A stretch of 44,568 bases of DNA from Chitinophagales bacterium. GTDB taxonomy: Bacteria; Bacteroidota; Bacteroidia; Chitinophagales; UBA2359. The position numbers were made by a program, and so were the translations under genes. The DNA is taken from assembly GCA_020628375.1 (NCBI GenBank), contig JAHDFD010000027.1, positions 1 to 44,568 on the forward strand, read 5' to 3'. Each line of letters opens with the position of its first letter. Position 1 is the stretch's first letter. This document shows positions 241 to 30,141 of the stretch, one piece after another. The notes beneath the pieces were generated by a model that worked only from the letters and a program-made list of their open reading frames with translations, was not told the origin of the DNA and did no database searches.

Positions 241-3200
241 GAGTTACTGTTAACATATAATCACAAGTTCCTGTTCCTGGTATAACCTCAGAACCAGAAG
301 CACTGTATGAAGTTCCAGTGGTTGGAGAAACATAAGGTAAATCAGAATCACAAATATCTGCTTCTTCAGTTATGTCCATTGGTGTCACACAATCCGCACC
401 AATTCCAGAGATACTTAATGGTTCACCAGCAGCATTAGTAAAGTCTGCATTAAAGCCTACACCAGGCTCATAGAAGAATACAAATTCATAAACACCAGAA
501 CCTGCAGGATTTTCTGAAGCAATTGGTGCCCCTGAAATCGGGTTTCCTGAAGCATTGAACAATCCGTTAGAAGTTCCTAAATCCAATGACCATATTTCAC
601 CTGTATCACTTGTAATCGTTACTGTTTCTTCAACTAAGTCAGTACCATCTGCTGTAGTGAAGTTATTAGGATTATCACAAGTACATGGGTCTGAAATACT
701 AATTGCAGGTTCTGTGCAATCGCAAGCCTCTACAGTTATTGTTTGCACCTGATCAGCCGCTGCATTTCCACATGCATCAACGGCACTCCATGTTCTTTCA
801 ATGGTAATTCCTGTACAAGCATCTCCAGTTTCTACATCTACTGAAGTTGCTGTTACTCCTGTGTCACAATTATCTGTTGCTGTTACAGTAGGAGGCGTTG
901 AAGTGTCTCCACAAGCAATTGTTTCATCATCCGGAGCAGTAAACATTGGAGCTTCAGTATCTGGTTCTACTGTAATTACCTGAACATGTGTAACAGGATT
1001 GTTACATGCATCTGTTAAGGTATAAGTTCTTGTAATTGTATTAGCATCCGGGCAAGTTAAGCCTGCATTAACATCATCAACGGTTAATACTGGTGCTGTA
1101 TCACAATCATCTGTACCTGTCAGGTTCTCAGCAGAAGGTATAGCATCTGCACAAGAAATTGTAACATCACCAGGTAATGCTCCATCGAATACCGGTGGAG
1201 TAGTATCTGCATAAGTTTCATTTATACTGAATATCTGCTCACATGTTGTTCCGGCAAAGAATGTATTAACGTAAGTTAAATCATAAGCACAAGTTGGTGG
1301 TGTTGTTATAGTACCCGCTGCACTATCACACTCAGTACCATCAACTGCTGTAATACTAACTGAACCAGCTTCACCACATGCAGGACTTACAGTATTAGCC
1401 ATAAATGCTGCAGGGTAAACCGTTACAGTTGCCGTCGTTGTTACTTTAACTACTCCATCAGTTGGACATGTAATAGTAATATCGAAAGTTGAATCAGCAG
1501 GATCACATGATTCGTTTGCATCGATATTTACCGTATAACATTCTTCAGCATTCGCTCCAGCTGTCGCAGCGGTGAAACTAGTAGTTGTTCCATTAGCTGT
1601 AATATCTACAGTTACACCATTCGCTTCATCACCATCATCATAAGTGATACATATATCAGCTGTACCTGCATCACTACAAGCTTCAGCAGGGGCAGCAACT
1701 GCATTACCCAACACACAACATTCCGCTGGAGTAATCGTAACATCTTCCCCAATGAAAGGACATGTTCCATCACCATTCTGTACGGCTGTAGTGTAAGTTC
1801 CAGGTGCTAAACCAGTGAAAGTACCAGAAGTTACCCAGGTAGTTCCTCCATCAATAGAGTATTCATAAGCTGTTCCGTTTCCTCCTGCAGCAACAATAGT
1901 AATTGTTCCATCTTCAGCCTGACAGCTTGTTTCATCTGTAAAGGCTACTGGTACCGTTACTTCTGGAGTTGACGGTGCCTGAATTGTAGCAGTATCATCA
2001 ATTTGACAAGTTCCATCATCGTTTCTTACACTAATAGTGTAAACACCATCAGGCAATCCAGTGAATGTACCTGCTGGCTGCCAAGTAGCGCCACCATCTA
2101 TAGAATATTCTAAACCACCTCCTACAGAAGACAAACCTCCTGAAGCAGTAATCGCGATTTCACCAGTACCAGCATCACAAGTTATTGGTTGAACTACATC
2201 GATTGCATCGATTACTAATGGATCACAGATAGTAACTTCTATCATTTCTTCACAACCACCAGCAATATTAGGATTTCCATCATTAACAGCAACCATATAA
2301 GTGCCAGCAGGAGCATCAGCATTAGAGAAAACTCCGGTTGTGTTTGAAGCACCATTATCAAGTGTGAATGTGTAAGTACCTGTTCCGTCAGAAGGACAAG
2401 CATCTGTTGCTCCACCCGTAGCTGTTACAGTAACACTACCATCACATGCTTTAGTTACCTCAGGAACAATTGATTCGTAAACGGTAATCATAATTTCTTC
2501 CACGCATGGTTCAGGGATAATTTCTATGCTAATACCATTCAAAGTACCATCATCAAAACCAAAATTAGTAACACAAAACTCCCAATTTCCAGTCGGGTCT
2601 TCACCATCAAAGTCAGTAAATGCACCGCTATTCGGACTGAAAGTACCTGCAGGATCATTCGGGAACTGAGCAATCGTAGGTTGTCCATCCTGGAAGCAAG
2701 GAGTTAAAGAAGATCCTACTCCTTCAAAGTTATATAATTGTATAGTTGTACCAGAAGGGGAGGTTAATGTAATTCCATAGTTTCCAATATTAGAAGCACT
2801 TAAATCAACACATGCTCCATCGAGTGTAGCACCATTAGGACCTCCAAGAACAGAACCAAATCCGGCTACAGGAACAGTGTAACAAGTTTCTGTAAAAAAT
2901 CCAGGTACATTTCCTCCTGTACCACCAACAGAAATTGGTGTAGGACTTAAAGGCGTATTATCGTTAACTTGTATTATGTAATCACCACATGCAAGCCCTG
3001 TAAATGAAGCAGAAGCAGGATCAGAAATCAAGCCAGCTGCATTTGGATCAGGTGAAATTGAGAATGAGAAATCCTCTCCGTTAGCACCTGCATACCCACC
3101 AGAAGCATTTACTATTATATCTCCATAATTACAACTTTCATCAACAGTAACCATTGTTTCATCAGGTATAATAACTACGAATGTATCTACCGATTGACAA

Positions 3201-6200
3201 CCCCACTCACCTGTTACAGTTAAGAAGTATTCATACGTACCTGGTGCTGCTGGCGTCTGAATTTCTGGTGGAATTGGTGTAGTCGTATTTTCAGTAGCTC
3301 CAGTTGTAATCACACCAGAATTATATGCTCCTGTCCATTCGTAATCAACAACTGTATTAATTATCTCAAAACATTCAAACGGTTCAGAGAAAATAGGTGT
3401 TGGAGATTGGTCATCATTAATATCCACATTTTGTCCATCTAAAGAGAACACACTTTGAGAACCATCAGGATTGGTTATTGTTACAGAGATGCCAAAGAAT
3501 ACACCAAAATCACCACCAACAATATCAGTAATAATTACTCCCCAAGGAGCAGCATTAGCATCTGTACCAATAATCGGGTTGAATACTCCACCACCATTCA
3601 GTGGCTGCCAAGAACTTCCAGCAGGAGGCGCTACTCCATTATTCCAATCCAAATTCGTATCTGCAGGATTATTAGTAAAACAGAAATTGAACTGATCGTT
3701 TGGTGTATCTGAGCCAATTGGACAACAGACACCATCGATCAGGTTAATGACTGTACCATCCGGTGCTACAACTTCAAATGATAAATCGGAAATATAAGTA
3801 TGTTCAAATTCTACACAAACTTCAATCTCGAATCCAGGTTCAACAAAGAATTGTGGTAATTCACCTCCACAGAATTCACGACAGAAATTCGGTCCTGGTA
3901 AGGTAGTTGCCTGTAAAGTAATATCTCGACCTAAGCATTGATATACTGTATCAGGTCCTCCGTTATTCATATTAATAGTAGGAGGCGTTGAAATAAATAC
4001 TTTCGCTGTGTCTGCAAAGCAACATCCTTGTGCATCAACTACAGTAATTTGATACGTACCCGTTTCAAGATCTGTGATCTGTGCATTAGTACCAATAGCC
4101 GAACCAGCGAATGCAGGATCTGTACAATCTTCAGGGAATAAACAATTATCATCTAATTCGTGCCAGAAATATTGATAAGGCGGTGTTGCTGTTGCGTCAT
4201 CTGGAGTTGCTTCTAAACAACCTAATTCTCCATCACAATATACATATACAATTGGTAAGTCCTGAATTGTAAAATCAGGATAATTACCTGTGGTATCAAT
4301 AGTATCTATGTATGCACCACAACCTAATATCTCAACAACTTCATCACCACAACAAGAAACGATATTAACCGGTCCAGAAATAGTTGAACATCCGTTTTCG
4401 TCAACGATTTCAATATACACATCACCACCTAAATCCATAAACTCAGGTGAAGCAGCAGCGGCATCTGTTAAAGTTGTTGTTGCTGTTATTGAAGCTAATG
4501 TTGCACCTCCATCTGTTGAAGGACCTACATTGATCGTATATGCACCCGGAGTTGTAGCAAATGCAACATTTGGATCGGCACCACCCTGAGCAACAGTAAT
4601 ATCTAATTCACCACAATTAGCTGTAGGAACGCCTGCTACTTCTAAAGGAGCACAAATATCTATATCAATTGTTTCTAAACAAGTTGCAACCGGATCTACA
4701 TTCTGATTATTATCATTTACCTCAACGGTATATGTACCCGCTGCAGCATCAGCAGATGTAAACACACCTGTTGTATTAGAAACCGCTAATCCAGCAGGAT
4801 CAAGTGTGAAAGTGAAGCCTTGTGCTCCGTTAGCAGGTGTAAAACAAGCACCTGCATAACCACCAGTAGCAGTTACAGTTGTTTCTGTACAAGTTTTTAC
4901 CTGATCCAATACAACCGGATCAAATACTTCTATATTATCTAAAGTATATTCACAGTTTCCAGGTGCAATATCTGTAACTGTTAAAGTGTAAGAACCACAA
5001 GGTACATTATCGAAGGTAGTAGGTCCTGTACTAGCCTGATCTACACCATTCAAATTAAAAGTGTATTCGTCGCCAGCAGCTTCGGCAGCTCCACCAGTAG
5101 CATCTACTGTTATTTCTCCATAATCACAAGTGTAAGATACCGTAGGTATAATCTCACTCGGAACTGTTACAATAACTTCTTCAGTAGAAATACATCCGAA
5201 ACAATCAGAAACTGTAAGTGTATAAGTTGTTGTTCCTACCGGAGGGGTAACTGTCTCAGCAGGGAAAGTTGCTAACATAGTGTTTTGATCTGCATCAGGA
5301 ATAGTAATCAATCCTGAATCAAAACCATCTGAACCTATCCACTGGTACGATAAAGTACAATTAGGTAAATTATCACATTCAACCGGAGGTGTTGGTTCAC
5401 CAGCATCATTATCGGCACTTTCATCGATAAATAATGGCGGATCGAATGTAATAGCTTCACTTAAAGTACACCCGTTAGGATCACTAATATCAATAGTATA
5501 ACCAAAGTAAGTACCGCCTTCTCCCGGAACATCATCAATCAATGAAACCTGAAAAGTACCTGTATTTATATCCAGACCAGCTAATCCATCAAAAACATCA
5601 TTTCCTCCAACATTTCCTTCAGGCAACCAATTTCCTGATAAACCCGGATCACATTCAAATCCACCGGGAGCACATAATCCTAATAAGTCAGCAACTCCTG
5701 GACCGTTAAAGTTGGCATTAGCAGTTGTATTCCAATCTAACTCTATTAATGCTCCTCCGGCACCATTATCTGCTGTTGGATCGTTCGTAAAGCAGAATTG
5801 CTCTGCATTATCATCCGAGTTAGGATATCCATCTCCTGCGTTTCTTGGTGTTAATAAGGTCAAAGTTATAGGTGCAGAACCATCATTCGGGAAGAATACT
5901 AGATCGAATCCGAAATCTGAGATCCAAGTTGCATCAAATGAAGGACAGATAGTAAATATAGCATCGTTAGTCAACACACAAGGAGGCAATTCTCCTTCAC
6001 AATATTCAAGACAAATTCCGTCTCCATCAGGTTGAGAAGTTCCTTCCAGATCAACTGTATCTCCTAAACAAACAGTAATATCATCATTTGCTGTAATTAC
6101 TGGTGGTGTATCTATAAATACTTTAAACTCATAAGTATTCTGACATCCAATAGCATCAGTTACAACAACCGTATAAGTTCCTGTTTGGAAACCTGTTGCT

Positions 6201-9200
6201 TGCTCTCCTATAAAAAACTCATCTCCTCCAGCCGTCGGGTCGTTAAAATCACCATAACCACATTCATCGCTTAATTCAAACCATTCATAAGTATATGGAG
6301 CTGTACCACCAGAACCTATTCCGTCCATACAAGCATCTCCACAGAATACATACAGATCTAAAGGAATAGTAGATAAACCATCAATTGAAACAAATTCTAA
6401 TTGAGGATTCGGAGGTGTAGCAGTTGCATCAGGGAAAACGTAGCCTGCATTCGCACAAGCCGCAGCAGTTACTTCAGGAATACCACCAACAGTGAAACAA
6501 ACCGAAGTTACATCTATACATTCGCTAGGATGTAATGGTTCAGGTGTGGTCATATCAGAACCAACTGCAATCGTTGTAGGACCAGTTGAAATTTGATAAT
6601 TTACTCCATAAATACAATAATCTCCTTCAGCAGCCGGTGTAAATACGCTTGTTGCTTGTAATCCCTGAACTACAATACCTGCAGCATCTGTAAGTACAAA
6701 TTCATAAGCATAATCTGCGCCTGTTTCTTGTCCTGTTGGTGTTAAGTCAGGAGAACTATCACCAATACAGAAATCTGTAACCGGATCAATAGTGCCTGCT
6801 TCAGCAGTACAACAAGAATAAATGAAAGTTTGTGTACAGGTAGCAGGGTTTCCACATTCATCGGTAATTGTATAAGTACGCGTTACTGTTGCCTCATTGC
6901 CTGCATTAGGACAAGCAGGGTCAGTTACATCAGCAAATGCAACTGTAAATGTTGTACTACAATTATCATTAATTGTACCTCCTAAAGCAATAAATCCAGC
7001 TTGATCTGTTGCACCAGGATTGTTTGCTAAGAAGTCAGCGTCATTATTATATAATGTTGTGTTATTAGCAGGGCAAGTGATTACTGGAGGATCTGTATCA
7101 GCATCAAATGTAAATGTCTGATCACATGTTGCAGGGTTACCACAAACATCAGTAATAGTATATGTTCTTGTAATTGTTCCTCCTGCACAAAAATCAATGT
7201 CAGTTATTGTCATATCATCAACAAAAGCAACTGTTAAATCTGCTTCATCTGTACAATTATCCGAGGCAGTTCCACCCAAACCAAGGAAAGCTGTTATATC
7301 TGTAACACCGGCAGGTAATGCATCGGTACAAGTTAAAGCTGTAATATTCGCAGGGCAAGTAATAACTGGCATATCAGTATCTGCATCGAATGTAAATGTT
7401 TGATCACAAGTAGCAGGGTTACCACATTCATCAGTAATCGTATAAGTTCTTGTTACAACAAAAGGACCATCAGCTGCACATAAACTAAAGGTTGTTGGAT
7501 CAACATCATCAACAAAACTAATTTGAGTAACATCAGGATTACAATTATCCGTAACAGTTCCACCTAATCCAGTAAAGCCAGCAATATCCGTTGCACCAGG
7601 ATAAGTTGTTGCAAAATCTGTTGTACAATCTAAACCTGAAACATTTGCAGGACATACAACTTGCGGCATTTCTGTATCTTCAATATAAATATCAACAGGG
7701 CAAGCGGTAGATACAGCACCAGCAGCGAATGTAAATTCAACTGTAATAGCATTTGCCTGACCACAAGCAGTTGGTAAAGTGTTTGCAGTATAATCGTTAC
7801 TTAAAGTAGTTGCAACACAATTAGTTGCAGCATCAACTCCAGCTTGTAATGCAGTAGTTGTAGCAGCAATAAAACCATCGACAGCAGTTTGATAATCCGT
7901 AGCACATAATACTAAGTCGTCTGGAGCAGCACAAACTGAAACGGTTACAGGTGTACCCGTAGTTTCACAAGTAGTACATCCATCGAAATCCCAAGTAGGC
8001 GTAAAAGTTACTTGCGTGCACGTTCCAGGTGCAGCAGGAGCCGTAACAGTAAAATCATCATCAGCACCTCCATCATCACGCGTCCAAACTAAAGCACCTG
8101 CACCAGTATAAGGATTAGCAGATGGTGCCCCTGTTGCAGGAACGCATTCTACCACATCAGCTGCAAATGTAAAAGTGTAATCTCCACAAGCAGCAGCAAC
8201 ATCTACACATTCGTTAACAATACGTGGAGTTACGACTTGTACGGTTTCAGTAGTTGTAGTTTGACACGTAGGGCAATTAGCATTTGTAATAGCATAGGTA
8301 ATATCATATTCACCACAAGCAACACATGCATCAATTTCAATCGAACCAGAAGCATCTGTACAATCTGTACCAGTTACTAAGTTATCACAAAGTGTTAAAC
8401 CTCCTGTTGTAGTCCAATCAAAAGAGAAGCCTGAATTAATAGCAGGTTGTGTAATAATCGTAGTAGCTGCACCTGCATTAAGACCTCCATTTTGCCATTG
8501 GTCAGCTCCACCAATAATTAAATCATTACCACAAAGGTCTGAGCAATTGATTACTGTAGCCGGAACATTGAAGTCAGAAGTTGGATATAGCACTTCAACA
8601 TCATAAGTTACATTTACAGACACATCTCCTCCTGCACAAGCTGCATTTTCAAACGTTATATCAATTGTTCCATCTTGACAAACAGTTCCTTCAGCTGTAA
8701 GACCATTAATTGTTTCAAATCTTCCTTCGCCTCCATCATCATATACAGATAGATTGTCAATTAAAACTGCTGAACTTAAGTCTTCTGACAATACATCAGA
8801 GGCATCTGAAACAACAAACGTATTACTACCAAAATTTGCTCCACAGCTATTTGCTGCTGTATAAGTTGCTTCTATAGTAGCACCACAAATTGCTTGAGCC
8901 ATTCCTAAGTTTTGTGTTACAGTGTTTCCAAGTGCCTCATCACCATCAAAAGCTACCGTAGATAGACCATTACACTCATCAGTTATTTCGACATCAACTT
9001 CAAAATCCCATGGAGCAATACCTGGCACGTCAATAGTTACCACAGCTGCGGCCCAGTTGTTATCATATGGTCCTTCCTCTAAAGTACCTGAGTTAGTATT
9101 ATTACCGCAATTATTAGTAGTACCATCTAAATCATCAGCATGGTTATCCGGAGCGCTATTCCATGGGAATGTTCCAAAATCACCAGAAGCATAAGTAATC

Positions 9201-22272: not shown

Positions 22273-24711
22273 TTAGTTACGCAAAGGCTTATTATTCTCC
22301 AACATATACTGAATACGCTCGAGTGTTTTAGGCTCACCACATAAGCTCAAGAACTGCTCACGTTCAACATCCAACAAGTATTGTTCTGATACTTTTTGCG
22401 GTGCACTCAGATCACCTCCACAAAGAACATAAGCAATTTTATTGGCAATTTTAATATCATGTTCTGAAGCGTAGTTTCCTAACTTCAAACTATGAGCAGC
22501 TACTTGTAAAGCACCTAAGCCTCCACGACCTAATACATGAATATCGTTACGTGGTGCCGGCTGGCTGTATCCTGCATCTGCAAGGTCTAATACCATCTTC
22601 TTAGCTTCACCAATGTTTCTTTTCGTTTTAACAGAAACTCTGTCTTTTCCTTCAATCAGGTAACCGTGTGTGAACGCTTCGTAAGCAGAAGTAGCAACAC
22701 TAGCCATTGCAATAGTCTTGAACTTTTCTATTATTGTAGGAATCTGTACGTCTCCTTCAAAGAATGAATCAGCTGCGCGTAAAGCGAACTCTTTGGTTCC
22801 ACCTCCTCCAGGCAATAAACCAACACCTACTTCAACTAATCCGATGTAAGATTCAGCAGCAGCAACCGCTCCATCACAGTGCATGATCGTTTCACAACCA
22901 CCACCGAACACATAACCCTGTGTAGCAGCTACAACAGGAATGCTTGAATAACGACAACGCATAGTCGTTTGCTGGAATGCATTTACAGCAAAGTTCAATT
23001 CATCGAATTCTTGCTGATATGCCATCATTCCGATCATCATAAGGTTGGCTCCAACAGAAAAATGTTCGGCATTGTTTCCGATCACTAACCCTTTCCAACC
23101 ATCATCTTCTGCAATTCTGATTGCTTCGTTAATTCCTTTTAAAACGCCTTCACCAATTGAATTCATTTTAGAAATAAATTCTAAACAAAGAACTCCATCG
23201 CCAATATCGTGTAATACAACGCCATCGTTTTTAAATACCGGAGCCTGCTCGCGATAATTGTCTAAAATAATGAATTGATCTGCTCCCGGAACTGCTTTGT
23301 AAGATTTTGAATCAATATCGTAATATTTCTGAACACCTCCTTCTTTTTTATAGAATGAAGTATGTCCTGCAGCAAGCATTTCTTTTACCCAGTCTGCAAT
23401 TTTTTCTCCATCAGCTTCAGCAGCTTTAATTCCATTTTCAATACCAACTAAATCCCAGTATTGGAAAGGTCCTACATCCCAACGGAAACCTGCGCGCAAA
23501 GCATCATCGATGCTATAAAGATTGTCAGAAATTTCAGGAATACGATTAGAAGCATAAGCAAATAATCCAGCTAAAGAACGACGTACTAATTCAGCCGCTT
23601 TATCTTCTCCGGCGAAATAAATATCCAAACGCTCTTTTAAATGGTCTTTACGACGTGCTGCTCCCATACTGTCGAACTTCACAGATGGCTTTGGTACGTA
23701 CTCTAATTTTTCAAGATCCAATTCAAGTACAACTCTTTTTCCTTTAGCATCTCTGTCGTTGGTCTTTTTATAGAAACCCTGACCAGACTTATTTCCTAAG
23801 AATTTATTCTCTAAAAGGAAATTGAAATATTTAGGCATTTCAAAAGCTTGTGCCTGCTCGTCGTCGGTACAACGTGTACGAATTGTTTCGGTAACGCTCA
23901 TCGCAGTATCGTGCCCAACTAAATCTCCTAAACGGAATGTTCCTGTATTCGGACGACCAATTGCTTTACCTGTTAATTTATCAACTACACTGATCGGTAA
24001 ACCAAGCTCGCTTGTAAGCTGATATACTTTAGCCATAGCATAAACCCCTACTCTATTGGCAATGAATGCTGGTGTATCTTTACAAAGTACGGTTTGTTTT
24101 CCTAAGTAAGTTGACCCATACTCCATAAAGAAATCTACTACCTCGCTTGACGTATGTGGCGTAGGAATGATCTCTAATAATTCTAAGTATCTTGGCGGAT
24201 TGAAATAATGCGTTCCACAGAAATGCGCTTTAAAGTCTTCACTTCTTCCTTCGGCCATTAAATGAATTGGAATACTTGAAGTGTTAGAGGTTATTAAAGT
24301 CCCGGGCTTACGGATCTTATCGATCTTTTCAAATAAAGATTGTTTGATCTCTAATTTTTCAACGATAACTTCAATGATCCAATCGCAATCTGCTAACATT
24401 TCTAAATTATCGTCTAGATTTCCAACCGTGATTCTGCTTGCAAAATCTTTGCTGTAATAAGCAGCAGGCTTTGATTTTAACAACGCTTTCATTGCTGCGT
24501 TTACAATGCTGTTTCTTTTAGCTGGAATTTTCTTTTCTTCATCGCTTAAATTGAAAGGAACGATGTCGAGCATTACCACCTCAAGACCAATATTCGCATA
24601 ATGTGCAGCGATACCTGCTCCCATTACACCTGATCCGATAACGGCAACTTTTTTGATTTTCCTCGATTTTGCCGAGGTAACTTGGATTTTTTCCATTGTT
24701 TTTGCTTCCAT
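22273..24711 (-). CDS. fadB: Fatty-acid oxidation complex alpha subunit (N-terminal 3-hydroxyacyl-CoA dehydrogenase plus C-terminal enoyl-CoA hydratase)
   Basis: N-terminal Rossmann motif VAVIGSGVMGAGIA, C-terminal crotonase fold. 812 aa. An alternative start MEKIQ lies 5 codons in. Confidence 0.85.
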   Translation of the reverse strand: MEAKTMEKIQVTSAKSRKIKKVAVIGSGVMGAGIAAHYANIGLEVVMLDIVPFNLSDEEKKIPAKRNSIVNAAMKALLKSKPAAYYSKDFASRITVGNLDDNLEMLADCDWIIEVIVEKLEIKQSLFEKIDKIRKPGTLITSNTSSIPIHLMAEGRSEDFKAHFCGTHYFNPPRYLELLEIIPTPHTSSEVVDFFMEYGSTYLGKQTVLCKDTPAFIANRVGVYAMAKVYQLTSELGLPISVVDKLTGKAIGRPNTGTFRLGDLVGHDTAMSVTETIRTRCTDDEQAQAFEMPKYFNFLLENKFLGNKSGQGFYKKTNDRDAKGKRVVLELDLEKLEYVPKPSVKFDSMGAARRKDHLKERLDIYFAGEDKAAELVRRSLAGLFAYASNRIPEISDNLYSIDDALRAGFRWDVGPFQYWDLVGIENGIKAAEADGEKIADWVKEMLAAGHTSFYKKEGGVQKYYDIDSKSYKAVPGADQFIILDNYREQAPVFKNDGVVLHDIGDGVLCLEFISKMNSIGEGVLKGINEAIRIAEDDGWKGLVIGNNAEHFSVGANLMMIGMMAYQQEFDELNFAVNAFQQTTMRCRYSSIPVVAATQGYVFGGGCETIMHCDGAVAAAESYIGLVEVGVGLLPGGGGTKEFALRAADSFFEGDVQIPTIIEKFKTIAMASVATSAYEAFTHGYLIEGKDRVSVKTKRNIGEAKKMVLDLADAGYSQPAPRNDIHVLGRGGLGALQVAAHSLKLGNYASEHDIKIANKIAYVLCGGDLSAPQKVSEQYLLDVEREQFLSLCGEPKTLERIQYMLENNKPLRN

Positions 24712-24823
24712 TGATTTAGTAATTAGTGAATTATTAAACTTTAAAACGGTTTTTTATTTATAGCAGTTCGACTACGCTCACTGACCGTAAGAAAAAAATA
24801 GTTTTAAAGTCTATTATTTATAA

Positions 24824-25165
24824 TTAATTATTTTTAAGGTTTTTCAAAACATTTAAAAGCGGTTGTTCTAATGACGGAATATCGAATTTTATTGTATTCC
24901 AAACAGTTTCTACGTCGGTTTTAAAATATTCGTGAATTAAAATATTTCTCATTCCTTTCATTATTCGCCACGGTATATTCTGACATTCATTTTTTGTTTG
25001 TTCTGTAACATTTGCCGATGCTTCGCCAATTATTTCAATTAAACGCTCGGCAGTTCGTTGGTAAATATTTTCATTTGAAAAGGTTGTAAAGTCAACATCA
25101 TCGAAAGTTTCAATTGCTTCTTTTATTATTTCAAGAATGTGATTAATTCGTTGTTTATCGGTCAT
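24824..25165 (-). CDS. hepT: HepT-like (DUF86) RNase toxin of a HepT/MNT toxin-antitoxin pair
   Basis: 113 aa. Rx4HxY motif RNILIHEY. Overlaps the upstream nucleotidyltransferase gene by 11 nt. Confidence 0.7.
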   Translation of the reverse strand: MTDKQRINHILEIIKEAIETFDDVDFTTFSNENIYQRTAERLIEIIGEASANVTEQTKNECQNIPWRIMKGMRNILIHEYFKTDVETVWNTIKFDIPSLEQPLLNVLKNLKNN

Positions 25166-26024
25166 AAATTAGAATTTTATCTCGTTCAAATCCTTCCTTT
25201 ACAAATGCTCGCAACGCCATTTTACTGGGTACTAAATCTACTTTTCTATTAAATGAATCTTCTAATTTTGCTTGTATTCTACTAATGATGAATAAACTTT
25301 TTTTACTACCTTCCGAAAATTCAATTAAAATGTCAATATCGCTATTTTCTGTTTGTTCTCCTCGTGCGAAAGAACCAAATAGATAGGCTTTGCTAACAGG
25401 TTCTTGCTCAAAAATTGATTGAGCTTTTTTTAAGTCTAAACTATTATTAACATCAATTTCTGATAGATTAAATTTATCTGCAATGTTCTCTAAGGCTCTT
25501 TCCAAATAACTTTTATCCTGGAAAACTTTCATGAGCATAACCGCGCCTTCAACTTGTGCAACAGCATCTTTAGCTTGCAAAATAGCTTCTTCTTCAGTAT
25601 AGCGTGTCTTAAACACATTAGCTAAAGCATCTATCCAATCGTTGAAGAATTTTCTGAAATACAAGGCAAAATTTTCATTCATGCTAACGGTTTCTAGGGC
25701 AATGTTACCCATTAAACAACCATCTGAAGCATCGAAAAAAGTTTTATAGCTGAACTCTTTGAACAGATTTAGTTTTTCTTTTACCTCCATACTTTCATCG
25801 TAAGCGATAGCAAACAAACTGTTTTTATAGCCTTTATACAACAGTTCCAAAACTGCTTCCATTATTTGTTCTTTACCTTTTGGGAAATGGTGGTATAAAC
25901 TTGCCTTTTGCAGTCCGCATGCTTCTGCAAGATCATTCATTGAGGTTTGATGATACCCCTGCTTCCAAAAAACCCGCATCGAGCTTTTAACTACTTCATC
26001 GGCTGAAACCTTCTTTTTTGGCAA
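25155..26024 (-). CDS. TetR-family HTH domain fused to an MNT-type nucleotidyltransferase (putative antitoxin/regulator, 289 aa)
   Basis: N-terminal TetR HTH SMNDLAEACGLQKASLYHHFPKGKEQIM plus a ~180-aa helical TetR body. C-terminal ~100 aa carry the minimal NTase motif AYLFGSFARGEQTENSDIDILIEF (GSx9-11DxD). Confidence 0.7.
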   Translation of the reverse strand: MPKKKVSADEVVKSSMRVFWKQGYHQTSMNDLAEACGLQKASLYHHFPKGKEQIMEAVLELLYKGYKNSLFAIAYDESMEVKEKLNLFKEFSYKTFFDASDGCLMGNIALETVSMNENFALYFRKFFNDWIDALANVFKTRYTEEEAILQAKDAVAQVEGAVMLMKVFQDKSYLERALENIADKFNLSEIDVNNSLDLKKAQSIFEQEPVSKAYLFGSFARGEQTENSDIDILIEFSEGSKKSLFIISRIQAKLEDSFNRKVDLVPSKMALRAFVKEGFERDKILIYDR

Positions 26025-26117
26025 ATTTTAAGCTTTTAGATTCAAAATTCGATACAAATATACATTTTTTACCAAACGGTCGGTTGGGAAAATCCATTTC
26101 TTAATGAAATTTTAACT

Positions 26118-27362
26118 TTGCCAAAAATTCAGACATTGAAAAAAACAAGTATTGCAATAATAGGTGGTGGCGCAGCAGGGTTCTTTGCTGCACTTAATTG
26201 TGCTATTCTGGCAAAGGAAAAAAACAAACAGGTTTCTATTACAATATATGAACAAGCGAAAAATGTTTTGCAAAAAGTTCGCATATCCGGTGGTGGTCGT
26301 TGTAATGTAACTCATGCTTGCTGGACTCCAAAAGAATTGGTAAAGTTCTATCCTAGAGGAAGTAAGGAATTATTAGGTCCGTTTCATACTTTTTGTTGTG
26401 GCGATACAGTAGCATGGTTCGGAGAAAGAGGCGTTGAATTGAAAATTGAAGGTGATGGTAGAATGTTTCCTAAAAGTGATTCTTCTCAGACAATAATCGA
26501 TTGTTTACTCAAAACCACCAATGATTTTGGTATAAAAGTATTAACCAAACATAAATTGACACATTTAAGTCAGTCTGATAATGGCAAATGGATAATAGAA
26601 TTGAACAAAGAAAAAAAGCTTGAATTCGATAAGGTGATGATCGCCAGTGGCAGCTCTAAAGTGATGTGGGATAAACTGTCAACATTAGGATTAGAAATAG
26701 TGCGCCCTGTTCCTTCGTTGTTTACTTTCAATATTAAAAATTCGTTGTTAAATCAATTAATGGGCTTATCATTACAAGATGTACACATAAAAATTCTTGG
26801 AACAAAGCTAAATTCAAATGGTCCATTATTGATTACTCATTGGGGTTTAAGTGGGCCTGCTGTACTGAAACTTTCTGCCTGGGGAGCCCGAAAGTTAAAT
26901 GAATTACAATATGATTTTCAAATCCAGATAAATTTCACAGGAGCTAGTAAACACGAGGAAGTAAAAAAGCAACTTCTGGCTATTAGGAATAATCAGAAAG
27001 TGATGAATATTGCTCAATTTAATATTCCTAAAAGATTATGGAAATATTTGGTTACAGAAGCAGATATTCCACCAGAGCGTACATGGAATGAGTTTGGGAA
27101 AAAACAAGCTGGCAGCTTAGCAACGATCATTACGCAATCGACTTATAATGTTAAAGGGAAAAGTACCTTTAAAGAAGAGTTTGTAACAGCCGGTGGTATT
27201 GACCTTAAGGAAATAGATTTCAAAAAATTTGAAAGTAAGAAATTCCCCGGTTTATTTTTTGCAGGCGAAGTGCTGAACATAGATGCCATTACCGGTGGAT
27301 TCAACTTTCAGGCAGCCTGGACGGGCGGCTATATTGTTGGGAGAAACATGGTTGATTATTGA
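26118..27362 (+). CDS. NAD(P)/FAD-dependent oxidoreductase, HI0933/YhiN (BaiN-like) flavoprotein family
   Basis: IAIIGGGAAGFFAA dinucleotide-binding motif and GGGRCNVT, with C-terminal FFAGEVLNIDAITGGFNFQAAWTGG. The ORF-track start is TTG at 26118. A second TTG at 26136 (MKKTSIAIIGGG) is equally plausible. Confidence 0.8.
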   Translation: MPKIQTLKKTSIAIIGGGAAGFFAALNCAILAKEKNKQVSITIYEQAKNVLQKVRISGGGRCNVTHACWTPKELVKFYPRGSKELLGPFHTFCCGDTVAWFGERGVELKIEGDGRMFPKSDSSQTIIDCLLKTTNDFGIKVLTKHKLTHLSQSDNGKWIIELNKEKKLEFDKVMIASGSSKVMWDKLSTLGLEIVRPVPSLFTFNIKNSLLNQLMGLSLQDVHIKILGTKLNSNGPLLITHWGLSGPAVLKLSAWGARKLNELQYDFQIQINFTGASKHEEVKKQLLAIRNNQKVMNIAQFNIPKRLWKYLVTEADIPPERTWNEFGKKQAGSLATIITQSTYNVKGKSTFKEEFVTAGGIDLKEIDFKKFESKKFPGLFFAGEVLNIDAITGGFNFQAAWTGGYIVGRNMVDY

Positions 27363-27412: not shown

Positions 27413-28993
27413 TTATATGATATCTACTAGTCCTATTTCACTTGCTTGCCATGCAATTTCAACTTTTTCTATTCCTAAATTTTTAAGCGTTTCAGCTGTT
27501 GAAGTGCCTATTGCCAAAATACGTTGATGCTCTTTGATCTCATGTTTTGACAAATAAGCTTCAGCATTTAAAGAACTGGTAAAAGCAAGAATGTCATGGT
27601 CTAATTCCGGGAAATCCTGAATGGGTTCATTTTCATAAACAACCCAATTAATAGCATTGATATTTTCTCCTATTCTCTTTTGAATCGATTGCTTTGAGTT
27701 TGAAGCCTGTGGAAAAAGTATATCTTGCCCCTCTGCTATTTTCAAAAAAGTCTGTGCTGTATCTTCTACTCCTTCATCATTTCCGATAAAATCGGGTTGA
27801 AAACCGTATTCTTTTAATTCATTCGCTGTGCCTGAACCCAAACAAGCTATTTTGTACATCAACAATCGTTGAACACCATTAAAACGTGGTACGATCTCAA
27901 AGAAATACTGAACGCCTTTTCTGCTCGAAAAGAAAATCCAATCTGCTTCCGGTAATTCAAATACTTCAGCAACTTTGAAATTGATCAAAGAATTTCCTTC
28001 AACAAGGTATCCTTGACTTTCCAATTGCTTTTTAAAATAACTTTTACCTGATTGATTTCTGGAAATAAATACTTTCTGGGGCTCAAAAGCCTTTAAAGCT
28101 TTCAATGTCTTTTTAACTACCTTTTCTGGTTTTCTTGAAGAACGGAACAGTCTTTTATAAGCTTTGGCTTTAGGTTTATTCACATCATAATCAGACTGAT
28201 AAAATGCCCACACATTATATCTTTCTTCTTCATATTCACAATAAACACCTATAGGTAACTGACAGCCACCTTCCAGTTGATGCAAAATACTTCTTTCTAC
28301 TTTCACTGCTGCTTCGGCACTGCTATCGTGTATCGTTTCAATTGCTGCAGCTGCTTTAGCATTACCTTCTTTTATCTGATACGCTAAAACTCCCTGAACA
28401 GCAGCCGGAATAAACTTTCTTGGATCGAATTTGAATAAATGGTAATTACTAAGATCGAGTTCTAATCTGGAAAGCCCTGCTGCGGCAAGCACAACAGCAT
28501 CTACTTCTTCTTCCACTTTTTTAACTCTGGTCGGCACATTTCCTCTGATCGGAACAACTTTGATATCGGGACGAAAAGCCAATAATTGGGCAACTCTTCT
28601 CGGAGAAGAAGTTCCAACGATCGCTCCTTCTTTTAAATCCCATAAACGCCCAATATGAACTGCTTTTTTATTTATAATGAGCCAATCTTCTGTTCTATCA
28701 CGGTAAGAATTTCCGGCGATAATCAATCCTTCAGGATTTTCGGTTGGTAGATCTTTGTAAGAATGTACAGCAATATCGATGCTTTCATCCAATAATGACT
28801 CTTCTAGTTCTTTAGTAAAGAAACCTTTTCCTTCCAACTTATCAAAACCAACGTTCTGAATTTTATCACCTTGTGTTTTTATGATCTCGATTTCAACCTC
28901 GTATCCTTGTTCAGTTAGTAAACTTTCGACATAATGTGCCTGCCATAAAGCTAACTGACTTCCACGTGAACCAATTATAATTTTGCGATCCAT
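27413..28993 (-). CDS. hemC/hemD: Bifunctional hydroxymethylbilane synthase / uroporphyrinogen-III synthase (HemC-HemD fusion)
   Basis: The N-terminal ~300 aa match HemC (IIGSRGSQLALWQA, GTSSPRR, RGNVPTRV, AAAGLSRL). The C-terminal ~225 aa have the HemD-like double Rossmann layout. 526 aa in a single ORF. Confidence 0.7.
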   Translation of the reverse strand: MDRKIIIGSRGSQLALWQAHYVESLLTEQGYEVEIEIIKTQGDKIQNVGFDKLEGKGFFTKELEESLLDESIDIAVHSYKDLPTENPEGLIIAGNSYRDRTEDWLIINKKAVHIGRLWDLKEGAIVGTSSPRRVAQLLAFRPDIKVVPIRGNVPTRVKKVEEEVDAVVLAAAGLSRLELDLSNYHLFKFDPRKFIPAAVQGVLAYQIKEGNAKAAAAIETIHDSSAEAAVKVERSILHQLEGGCQLPIGVYCEYEEERYNVWAFYQSDYDVNKPKAKAYKRLFRSSRKPEKVVKKTLKALKAFEPQKVFISRNQSGKSYFKKQLESQGYLVEGNSLINFKVAEVFELPEADWIFFSSRKGVQYFFEIVPRFNGVQRLLMYKIACLGSGTANELKEYGFQPDFIGNDEGVEDTAQTFLKIAEGQDILFPQASNSKQSIQKRIGENINAINWVVYENEPIQDFPELDHDILAFTSSLNAEAYLSKHEIKEHQRILAIGTSTAETLKNLGIEKVEIAWQASEIGLVDII

Positions 28994-30032: not shown

Positions 30033-30141
30033 ATTTGTGCTTCGACTACGCTCAGCATAAATTCAGCTATACTTGACATAAAGTAGATTAGCTGTTTTAT
30101 AATAATGTAAGGGTTTTGCTGAGTAAGCTTGACATAAGTGT

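Follow-up and report, generated by a model that had tools for sequence, protein, structure and literature searches.

A TetR-family regulator joined in frame to the minimal nucleotidyltransferase of a HepT/MNT-type pair in a Chitinophagales genome

Introduction

How does the antitoxin of a toxin-antitoxin pair become part of a transcriptional regulator, and which of the two partners resided at the site before the other? The question is raised by a locus of a Chitinophagales bacterium (NCBI GenBank assembly GCA_020628375.1, contig JAHDFD010000027.1, positions 1 to 44,568), where a minus-strand gene of 289 codons, called here tetR::mnt (25155-26024), encodes a TetR-family regulator followed by an MntA-like minimal nucleotidyltransferase (MNT), and overlaps the gene of a 113-aa HepT toxin (24824-25165). 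The whole stretch of 44,568 nucleotides that was analysed is referred to as the window. An earlier reading of the window sequence, called here the original prediction, had recognised the pair and proposed that the toxin-antitoxin module had gained a TetR repressor. Comparative loci show the reverse order, a foreign MNT-HepT block having been grafted onto the 3' end of a resident tetR gene. The locus is a rare, lineage-restricted variant of type VII HepT/MntA, probably born of an insertion accident, yet maintained under selection.

No DNA-binding domain can be recognised in canonical MntA antitoxins, which repress their operons only weakly, so that the transcriptional control of type VII modules is poorly understood. 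The assumption of the original prediction that canonical HepT/MntA complexes autoregulate is true in a weak sense: MntA of Shewanella oneidensis, in which no DNA-binding domain is predicted, represses its own promoter 1.6-fold (PMC4621449). The locus described here is informative on how enzyme-type antitoxins acquire transcriptional control.

Results

One gene encodes complete TetR and MNT domains

The tetR::mnt reading frame opens with a TTG codon (26022-26024, minus strand) and closes with a TAA codon (25155-25157). The coordinates and lengths of the two open reading frames (ORFs; 289 and 113 aa) and their 11-nt overlap are exactly as originally given. The TetR part spans residues 1-186 (25467-26024, minus strand) and includes a helix-turn-helix (HTH) and a TetR_C_13_2 ligand/dimerisation domain, as delimited by Pfam, by orthologue alignment and by an AlphaFold2 (AF2) model. 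The MNT part spans residues 187-289 and the stop codon (25155-25466, minus strand), and includes the linker, helix alpha1, the GSx10DxD motif and residue D263.

Pfam searches of the fusion protein matched TetR_N (PF00440; aa 13-58, 58.4 bits, cutoff 24), TetR_C_13_2 (aa 99-177, 44.9 bits, cutoff 27), NTP_transf_2 (PF01909; aa 201-281, 57.8 bits, cutoff 21) and Polbeta (PF18765; aa 200-288, above the gathering score). TetR and nucleotidyltransferase domains are both found above their gathering scores, and the proposal that the MNT is translated as the C-terminal tail of an entire TetR-family regulator is borne out by Pfam and by the AF2 model. No Pfam match to an XRE-type HTH (PF01381/PF13560) was obtained in the fusion protein, and the DNA-binding domain is made by TetR_N and TetR_C. 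The MNT domain is complete (aa ~198-288). Its catalytic motif reads G217-S218-x10-D229-x-D231, the third aspartate being D263; the GS, SDxD and VD residues are invariant across the homologue alignment, and all are kept in the fusion. A phmmer search of the PDB matched the MNT half to the minimal nucleotidyltransferase 1wot (E = 6e-6).

In the AF2 model (mean predicted local distance difference test score, pLDDT, 88.6; predicted template modelling score, pTM, 0.65) the nine predicted TetR helices (residues 8-186) are followed by a full alpha/beta MNT domain (198-288), and the linker between the two (blocks 181-200) is modelled with lower confidence (pLDDT ~68). The structures nearest to the TetR half in Foldseek searches are 3on4, PA2196, NemR, YxaF (1sgm) and AcuR, with template modelling scores (TMt) of 0.78-0.82 to 3on4, 4l62, 4yze and 1sgm.

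The fusion is genuine and rare

The same unbroken 289-aa ORF, with no indel, was identified in a second assembly (locus L001, Logan SRR26831607; protein P0002). The two ORFs share 83% nucleotide and 87% amino acid identity, and differ at 147 nucleotides. No frameshift occurs across this 17% nucleotide divergence, and the hidden frameshift or stop codon that would have split TetR and MNT into separate genes is found neither in the window nor in L001. That a sequencing or assembly artefact, in the form of a missed stop or a frameshift, merged two genes is scarcely credible. Two independent assemblies from different sources keep the same 289-aa frame despite the 147 differences; standalone TetR proteins end where homology on the MNT side begins, and no start codon follows. 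The artefact was rejected on the evidence of the second intact copy. In either fusion genome codons 179-268 include no in-frame ATG, GTG or TTG, hence the MNT cannot begin at the junction. Conceivable internal starts are located within the last TetR helices, at M163, M165 and L174 (a TTG codon), in both genomes. Where the window gene has its TTG start, L001 and the cassette-free locus L002 have ATG; the TTG codon may lower the translation of the repressor-antitoxin in the window genome.

The ratio of nonsynonymous to synonymous substitution rates (dN/dS) between the window and L001 is ~0.10 for the MNT part, ~0.075 for HepT and ~0.04 for the TetR part. MNT and HepT are under purifying selection in the fused state.

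A word-indexed search of 5.8 billion clustered proteins for further TetR-nucleotidyltransferase fusions retrieved only the cluster of the query, in which P0002 is the sole other sequence. No other protein spanning both halves was found among the matches listed in an exhaustive phmmer search of 1.84 billion representatives, which score at least ~88 bits; fusions with distant TetR subfamilies that score lower would not be shown. Two candidates were discarded. P0162, also 289 aa long, has a TetR_N domain only, and a match of locus L010 extending over query residues 1-225 corresponds to a standalone TetR followed by the gene of an AriA-like ATPase. The TetR-MNT architecture is confirmed as real but rare; it was seen in two genomes only, and had correctly been called uncommon on the strength of the window, as the protein-cluster searches testify. 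No description of TetR-MNT or HTH-MNT antitoxins was found in the literature searched, the search not being exhaustive.

The pair is of the HepT/MNT type

HepT, a DUF86/HEPN RNase toxin, is encoded by a separate, frame-shifted ORF (24824-25165, minus strand), the start of which overlaps the fusion ORF before the latter stops at its TAA codon. The two genes have the same orientation, the MNT gene being 5' of the HepT gene, and the sequence of the 11-nt overlap is identical in L001. The 113-aa protein matches the HepT-like family PF01934 with 82.1 bits (cutoff 23.5, E = 3e-23). Its Rx4HxY motif reads R73-NILI-H78-E-Y80 in the window as in L001, and every family-invariant residue is kept in the homologue alignment, so that the catalytic motif, the loss of which would have spoken against a HepT toxin, is retained. 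The GSx10DxD and Rx4HxY motifs together define the AMPylating pairs (Yao et al., PMC7641770). Both signature motifs of a HepT/MNT-type pair are present as originally claimed, although the positions then implied were approximate only. Motifs and Pfam families (Class I, PF01934/PF01909) confirm at the sequence level that the pair is a HepT/MNT-type module.

The likeness to the type VII HepT/MntA system of S. oneidensis (SO_3166/SO_3165; PMC7641770, PMC4621449) includes the order and the overlap of the two genes, the MNT gene coming first, both motifs, an acceptor tyrosine adjoining the RNase motif, and matches to both Pfam families above the gathering thresholds. There are also differences. The type VII antitoxin is a small free-standing MNT of <150 aa, whereas the MNT here forms the C-terminal third of a TetR regulator 289 aa long; the cassette appears to have no promoter of its own and is located within a beta-oxidation operon; the scores of the pair are under the NCBIfam equivalog cutoffs.

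TetR as resident repressor of a fad operon

The closest homologues of the TetR part are standalone proteins of 183-197 aa, the C-termini of which align with residues ~184-197 of the fusion. P0003, the best match (56% identity), is encoded directly upstream of a fadB-like gene, which is followed by a gene of the 23S_rRNA_IVP type (IVP gene) and by a thiolase gene. In the cassette-free locus L002 the TAA stop of tetR abuts the ATG of fadB, and the spacer found in the window is absent. Adjacency of tetR and fadB, in this order, was observed in L002 and L003, and at every close orthologue locus among GTDB representatives (L007-L013). The latter were recovered by an alignment-based scan of GTDB representative genomes, a single-protein scan having matched nothing, and belong to metagenome-assembled genomes (MAGs) of Chitinophagales, Aureispira and Saprospiraceae. 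The fadB-like gene of the window (22273-24711, minus strand; Pfam 3HCDH_N, 3HCDH and ECH_1) encodes a 3-hydroxyacyl-CoA dehydrogenase/enoyl-CoA hydratase. Ancestrally this gene follows tetR directly, and here it is probably transcribed together with tetR::mnt and hepT.

A candidate TetR operator, TTTTCCCAACCGACCGTTTGGTAAAA (26067-26092, minus strand), is located 43-68 nt upstream of the start codon. It is an imperfect palindrome of 26 bp, self-complementary at 20/26 positions, and is unique in the window, where 0 chance matches are expected. The element was recovered by cross-locus alignment, as the repeat search missed its imperfect, adjacent arms. The tetR genes of L001, L010 and the cassette-free L002 are likewise preceded by the conserved palindrome, and related candidate sites, with the consensus TTTACCAAAC-N4-GTTTGGTAAA, were found upstream of tetR in L007-L013. 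As judged from sequence, the palindrome is conserved in 11 orthologous loci, the window included, whether or not they host a cassette. A palindromic candidate operator, for which the original prediction proposed to look upstream of 26024, is present, but belongs to the TetR orthologue family rather than to the toxin-antitoxin pair.

Immediately downstream of the candidate operator lies a Bacteroidota-type -7 box, TATATTTG (26055-26062, minus strand), which conforms to TAnnTTTG, the established promoter consensus of Bacteroidota. It is the sole such box on its strand from 26150 to 24650; likewise, one box was found in L001 between 1300 and 3500. By its sequence and position it would act as the promoter. 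A sigma-70 promoter scan gave 7 sites against 5.7 expected, and the Bacteroidota box was used instead. In the 112-nt hepT-fadB spacer neither a minus-strand terminator, as searched by a terminator scan, nor a TAnnTTTG box was found. Because no second operator, no second -7 box and no minus-strand terminator in the spacer were detected, the locus appears to have one TetR-controlled promoter, and the sequence supports the dependence of cassette transcription on it.

Much of the spacer can fold into a hairpin (24735-24813, minus strand; RNA fold -20.6 kcal/mol, z = -2.66). A further copy of the hairpin core, GAGCGTAGTCGAA, lies in a different intergenic spacer (30040-30055, minus strand) of the window, and a related element is found upstream of fadB in L001 (~3290-3400). 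The spacer hairpin may represent a short palindromic element that is repeated between genes.

Because its orthologues are standalone, its synteny with fadB is conserved, and the operator is conserved with or without the cassette, TetR is, on comparative sequence grounds, best seen as the autoregulator that already resided in a conserved tetR-fadB-thiolase operon, and not as something that the toxin-antitoxin module brought along. With members of the TetR_C_13/YxaF-LmrA-NemR-AcuR-PA2196 group it shares the HTH and the nine-helix fold, a palindromic candidate operator, the autoregulatory position upstream of an operon, and the size of its standalone orthologues; unlike them, the fusion carries an enzymatic C-terminal extension of ~100 aa. 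The operon context suggests a ligand from fatty-acid metabolism, namely acyl-CoA, whereas the Foldseek ranking places the fold closer to NemR, YxaF, PA2196 and AcuR, and thus nearer to electrophile- or drug-sensing members, than to the acyl-CoA-sensing FadR. An acyl-CoA-sensing TetR of the FadR type was considered, and is unsupported by this ranking. A cysteine, Cys103 (25716-25718, minus strand), in the motif DGCLMGN, is invariant in all 11 aligned TetRs (two fusions and nine standalone proteins). Together with the fold it hints, by analogy with NemR, that TetR is a thiol or electrophile sensor rather than an acyl-CoA-binding protein.

Divergence and composition of the MNT-HepT cassette

Nucleotide identity between the window and L001 is 91-94% in the MNT part and in HepT, and 72-82% in the TetR part, fadB, the IVP gene and the thiolase gene. 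The number of synonymous substitutions per synonymous site (dS) follows the same partition, being 0.315 for MNT and 0.271 for HepT, and 2.7 for TetR, 1.63 for fadB, 1.33 for the IVP gene and 1.12 for thiolase. Four-fold degenerate sites differ in 19.6% of cases in the cassette and in 54.9% in the flanks (Fisher p = 4e-7), and their divergence differs also between the TetR and MNT halves of the single fusion ORF (Fisher p = 5e-4).

The less diverged segment (24900-25466, minus strand; 91-94% nucleotide identity to L001, against 78-82% on either side) was delimited by sliding identity, nucleotide breakpoints and BLAST comparison of L001 with the window, and both of its ends are sharp. One breakpoint, at ~25465, falls at residues S-E-I-D-V (aa ~187 of the fusion), where standalone TetRs end and homology on the MNT side, including helix alpha1, begins. 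The other, at ~24900, falls at HepT aa ~103. The GC content is 29.5-29.8% in the cassette and 36-39% in the flanks; at third codon positions (GC3) it is 15-22% in the cassette (15% in MNT) and 28-35% in the flanks. Identity and composition both show the MNT-HepT block, at the level of sequence, as foreign and younger than its flanks. The statement that the pair carries no other mobile-element signature was partly right; the cassette is nevertheless distinct from its surroundings in composition and in evolution.

Relatives of the cassette are remote. No HepT homologue above ~47% identity was found outside the two fusion genomes, and a scan of viral contigs revealed no relatives of HepT. Since the junction is identical in both genomes, the fusion would have arisen once, and recombination would then have carried it from one lineage to the other. 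The right-hand endpoint of the cassette would since have been remodelled, hepT and fadB being separated in L001 by an additional IVP gene. The gene upstream of tetR encodes a HI0933-like flavoprotein in the window (26118-27362, plus strand) and a HgmA-like dioxygenase in L001 (156-1313, minus strand), so that synteny is conserved on the fadB side only.

The tetR-fadB junction hosts different cargoes

The gap between tetR and fadB measures 0-180 bp in most orthologous loci, with two exceptions. L010, a Chitinophagales MAG, has 2.46 kb of cargo at the junction (928-3313), which includes the gene of an AriA-like (PARIS-type) ATPase (PADLOC, E = 3.6e-57), that of a 270-aa protein without family match, and an IVP gene. 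This cargo is possibly an uncharacterised two-gene defence system. L012, an Aureispira MAG, has 2.7 kb at the same place (3898-6333), with four ORFs which by eye, from their sequences only, resemble an alpha/beta-hydrolase, an SRPBCC-like protein and two hotdog thioesterases. The notion of a hotspot reserved for defence genes was discarded, since the L012 cargo looks metabolic by eye. As far as the compared sequences tell, cargo was acquired at the junction several times independently; the insertion in the window is one such event, and the sole one fused in frame.

IVP genes (PF05635, '23S_rRNA_IVP', bAvd-like four-helix bundle) are scattered within the fad operon at positions that vary by genome: 21831-22193 (minus strand) in the window, 2889-3257 and 6047-6397 in L001, 11054-11425 in L002, 2924-3313 in L010. 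Their distribution suggests that they behave like small mobile gene cassettes.

Other DNA-binding domains joined to MNT

Many fusions were seen among the recovered MNT homologues, of the types XRE-HTH-MNT, MNT-MNT, MNT-HepT and DUF6577-MNT. XRE-HTH-MNT proteins count among the sequences most closely related to the MNT part (about 50-60% identity over the core), as does P0033 (172 aa; 23 member sequences on 17 contigs; ~49-51% identity). On several metagenome contigs (L004-L006, 2501-3386) the P0033 gene lies immediately downstream of a RadA/Sms-like gene, and the HepT gene that comes next overlaps it by 11 nt, as in the window. As in tetR::mnt, an N-terminal DNA-binding domain and a C-terminal MNT are joined in one protein, with HepT next to it. 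In the relatives, however, the DNA-binding domain is an XRE helix-turn-helix of ~60 aa which is part of the mobile module, whereas here it is a ligand-binding TetR of ~186 aa which is part of a host operon. By their domain composition, XRE-HTH-MNT proteins with HepT can be regarded as a widespread DNA-binding-antitoxin form of HepT/MNT; a DNA-binding domain on MNT is a recurring design, and TetR a rare substitute, found in one cluster among the 1.84 billion representatives. No description of XRE-HTH-MNT with HepT was found in the literature searched, which was not covered exhaustively.

A fusion event involving the MNT of a HepT/MntA-type module is known also in Shewanella, where MNT and HEPN are fused in FhepTA (PMC13000451). 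That protein indicates that MNT tolerates covalent partners, and that the N-terminal context matters for stability. In FhepTA the MNT is joined to its own toxin; here MNT and HepT are separate ORFs, and the MNT is joined to an unrelated regulator.

Discussion

The origin and the working of the locus can be outlined as follows. A promoterless, foreign two-gene cassette of the HepT/MntA type (type VII) would have inserted between the stop-codon region of tetR and fadB, and the insertion would have joined the MNT antitoxin in frame to the TetR C-terminus. A single unit would have resulted, made by operator/promoter, tetR::mnt, hepT, fadB, the IVP gene and the thiolase gene. The TetR half would dimerise, bind the palindrome overlapping its own promoter and repress the unit until released by a ligand. 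The general architecture of TetR dimers is the basis for placing the MNT domains away from the DNA: the dimer would present two flexibly tethered MNTs on the opposite face. Through its linker of ~10 residues, the MNT half would reach HepT and AMPylate Tyr80, keeping the RNase silent. In this way TetR would provide what is lacking in canonical MntA, a module for DNA binding and autoregulation, which the closest MNT relatives have as an N-terminal XRE HTH. Co-transcription, DNA binding, AMPylation and toxicity are all inferred. The N-terminal region controls MNT turnover and stability in Shewanella (PMC13000451), and for this reason loss of the native N-terminus has probably altered the stability of the antitoxin here. 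Taken as a whole, cassette insertion leading to a bifunctional repressor-antitoxin within one transcription unit is the explanation that we favour, and we hold it to be probable.

Several observations weigh against this account. The NCBIfam equivalog models agree with the assignment of the pair, but each member scores under its cutoff of 60 bits (50.5 bits for the fusion with MntA_antitoxin, NF047752; 35.5 bits for HepT with HepT_toxin, NF047751). The spacer hairpin could attenuate read-through into fadB, and initiation at M163, M165 or the TTG codon of L174 could give a separate MNT. With a fold nearer to the NemR/YxaF/PA2196 group than to FadR, the ligand of TetR, and hence the physiological signal, is uncertain. 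No tract of raised identity extends clearly into fadB. As only two genomes carry the fusion, its long-term maintenance is weakly sampled.

The same observations can be read in other ways. The fusion might be a neutral accident, a tolerated insertion scar in which either the toxin-antitoxin pair or TetR no longer functions. The great rarity of the architecture, the TTG start in the window, the scores below the equivalog cutoffs and a HepT C-terminal tail that differs between the two genomes would all suit a decaying locus. Decay is nonetheless unlikely in view of the low dN/dS values of all three parts, of the catalytic and family-invariant residues, kept without exception in both genomes, of the absence of frameshifts and of the retained candidate operator. 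The fusion might also be apparent, if internal initiation at one of the three codons named above yielded a free MNT of ~116-127 aa, the full-length protein acting as TetR only. The two ATG codons and the TTG codon are in frame in both genomes, and Bacteroidota do not depend on Shine-Dalgarno sequences, which makes internal starts hard to exclude by sequence. The methionines are, however, conserved in standalone TetRs, as part of a GAxMLMK helix, and need no such explanation; no start codon is found at or past the true junction, and the XRE-HTH-MNT relatives indicate that a large DNA-binding domain at its N-terminus does not prevent MNT from working. A free MNT is accordingly an improbable outcome.

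A more elaborate possibility, put forward in the original prediction, is that the ligand-binding TetR domain gates the antitoxin allosterically, making both HepT neutralisation and transcription dependent on a small molecule, as in a metabolite-triggered RNase switch. Both domains reside in one polypeptide, are intact and are under purifying selection, which speaks for such a switch. The linker is modelled with lower confidence and is probably flexible, and no inter-domain interface is evident from the AF2 scores, which leaves small-molecule-dependent neutralisation unsupported. The junction looks like the by-product of an insertion at a variable site that takes up unrelated cargo, the fusion is carried by two genomes only, and the TetR half, which evolves like its standalone orthologues, has no sign of co-adaptation. 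Allosteric gating is on these grounds doubtful. Going further, one may imagine that ligand and/or operator binding shifts the geometry of the tethered MNTs, and with it the AMPylation of the HepT dimer, and that HepT in turn modulates the repression of beta-oxidation, the locus being a domesticated toxin-antitoxin pair that acts as post-transcriptional governor of fatty-acid catabolism or a metabolite-gated abortive-infection switch; and, separately, that the tetR-fadB junction is a recombination hotspot at which small defence cassettes are exchanged among Chitinophagales and Saprospiraceae. We regard these ideas as long shots.

If the bifunctional repressor-antitoxin is accepted, this locus and its XRE-HTH-MNT relatives suggest that MNT antitoxins repeatedly gain control through a covalently attached DNA-binding domain. 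Here the domain would have been borrowed from a host metabolic regulator, wiring toxin-antitoxin expression into a beta-oxidation operon. The locus may be viewed as a natural experiment on the embedding of a selfish cassette in host regulation, on the N-terminal cargo that an MNT tolerates, and on signal-responsive enzyme-type antitoxins. The dS contrast is a neat illustration of a cassette transfer between lineages that is more recent than the divergence of the flanks. The locus is of modest practical importance, the fusion being present in two genomes and its function predicted.

Additional observation

A second gene fusion marks the region upstream of tetR::mnt. A 526-aa ORF (27413-28993, minus strand) combines porphobilinogen deaminase (HemC) and uroporphyrinogen-III synthase (HemD) in one hemC-hemD fusion.

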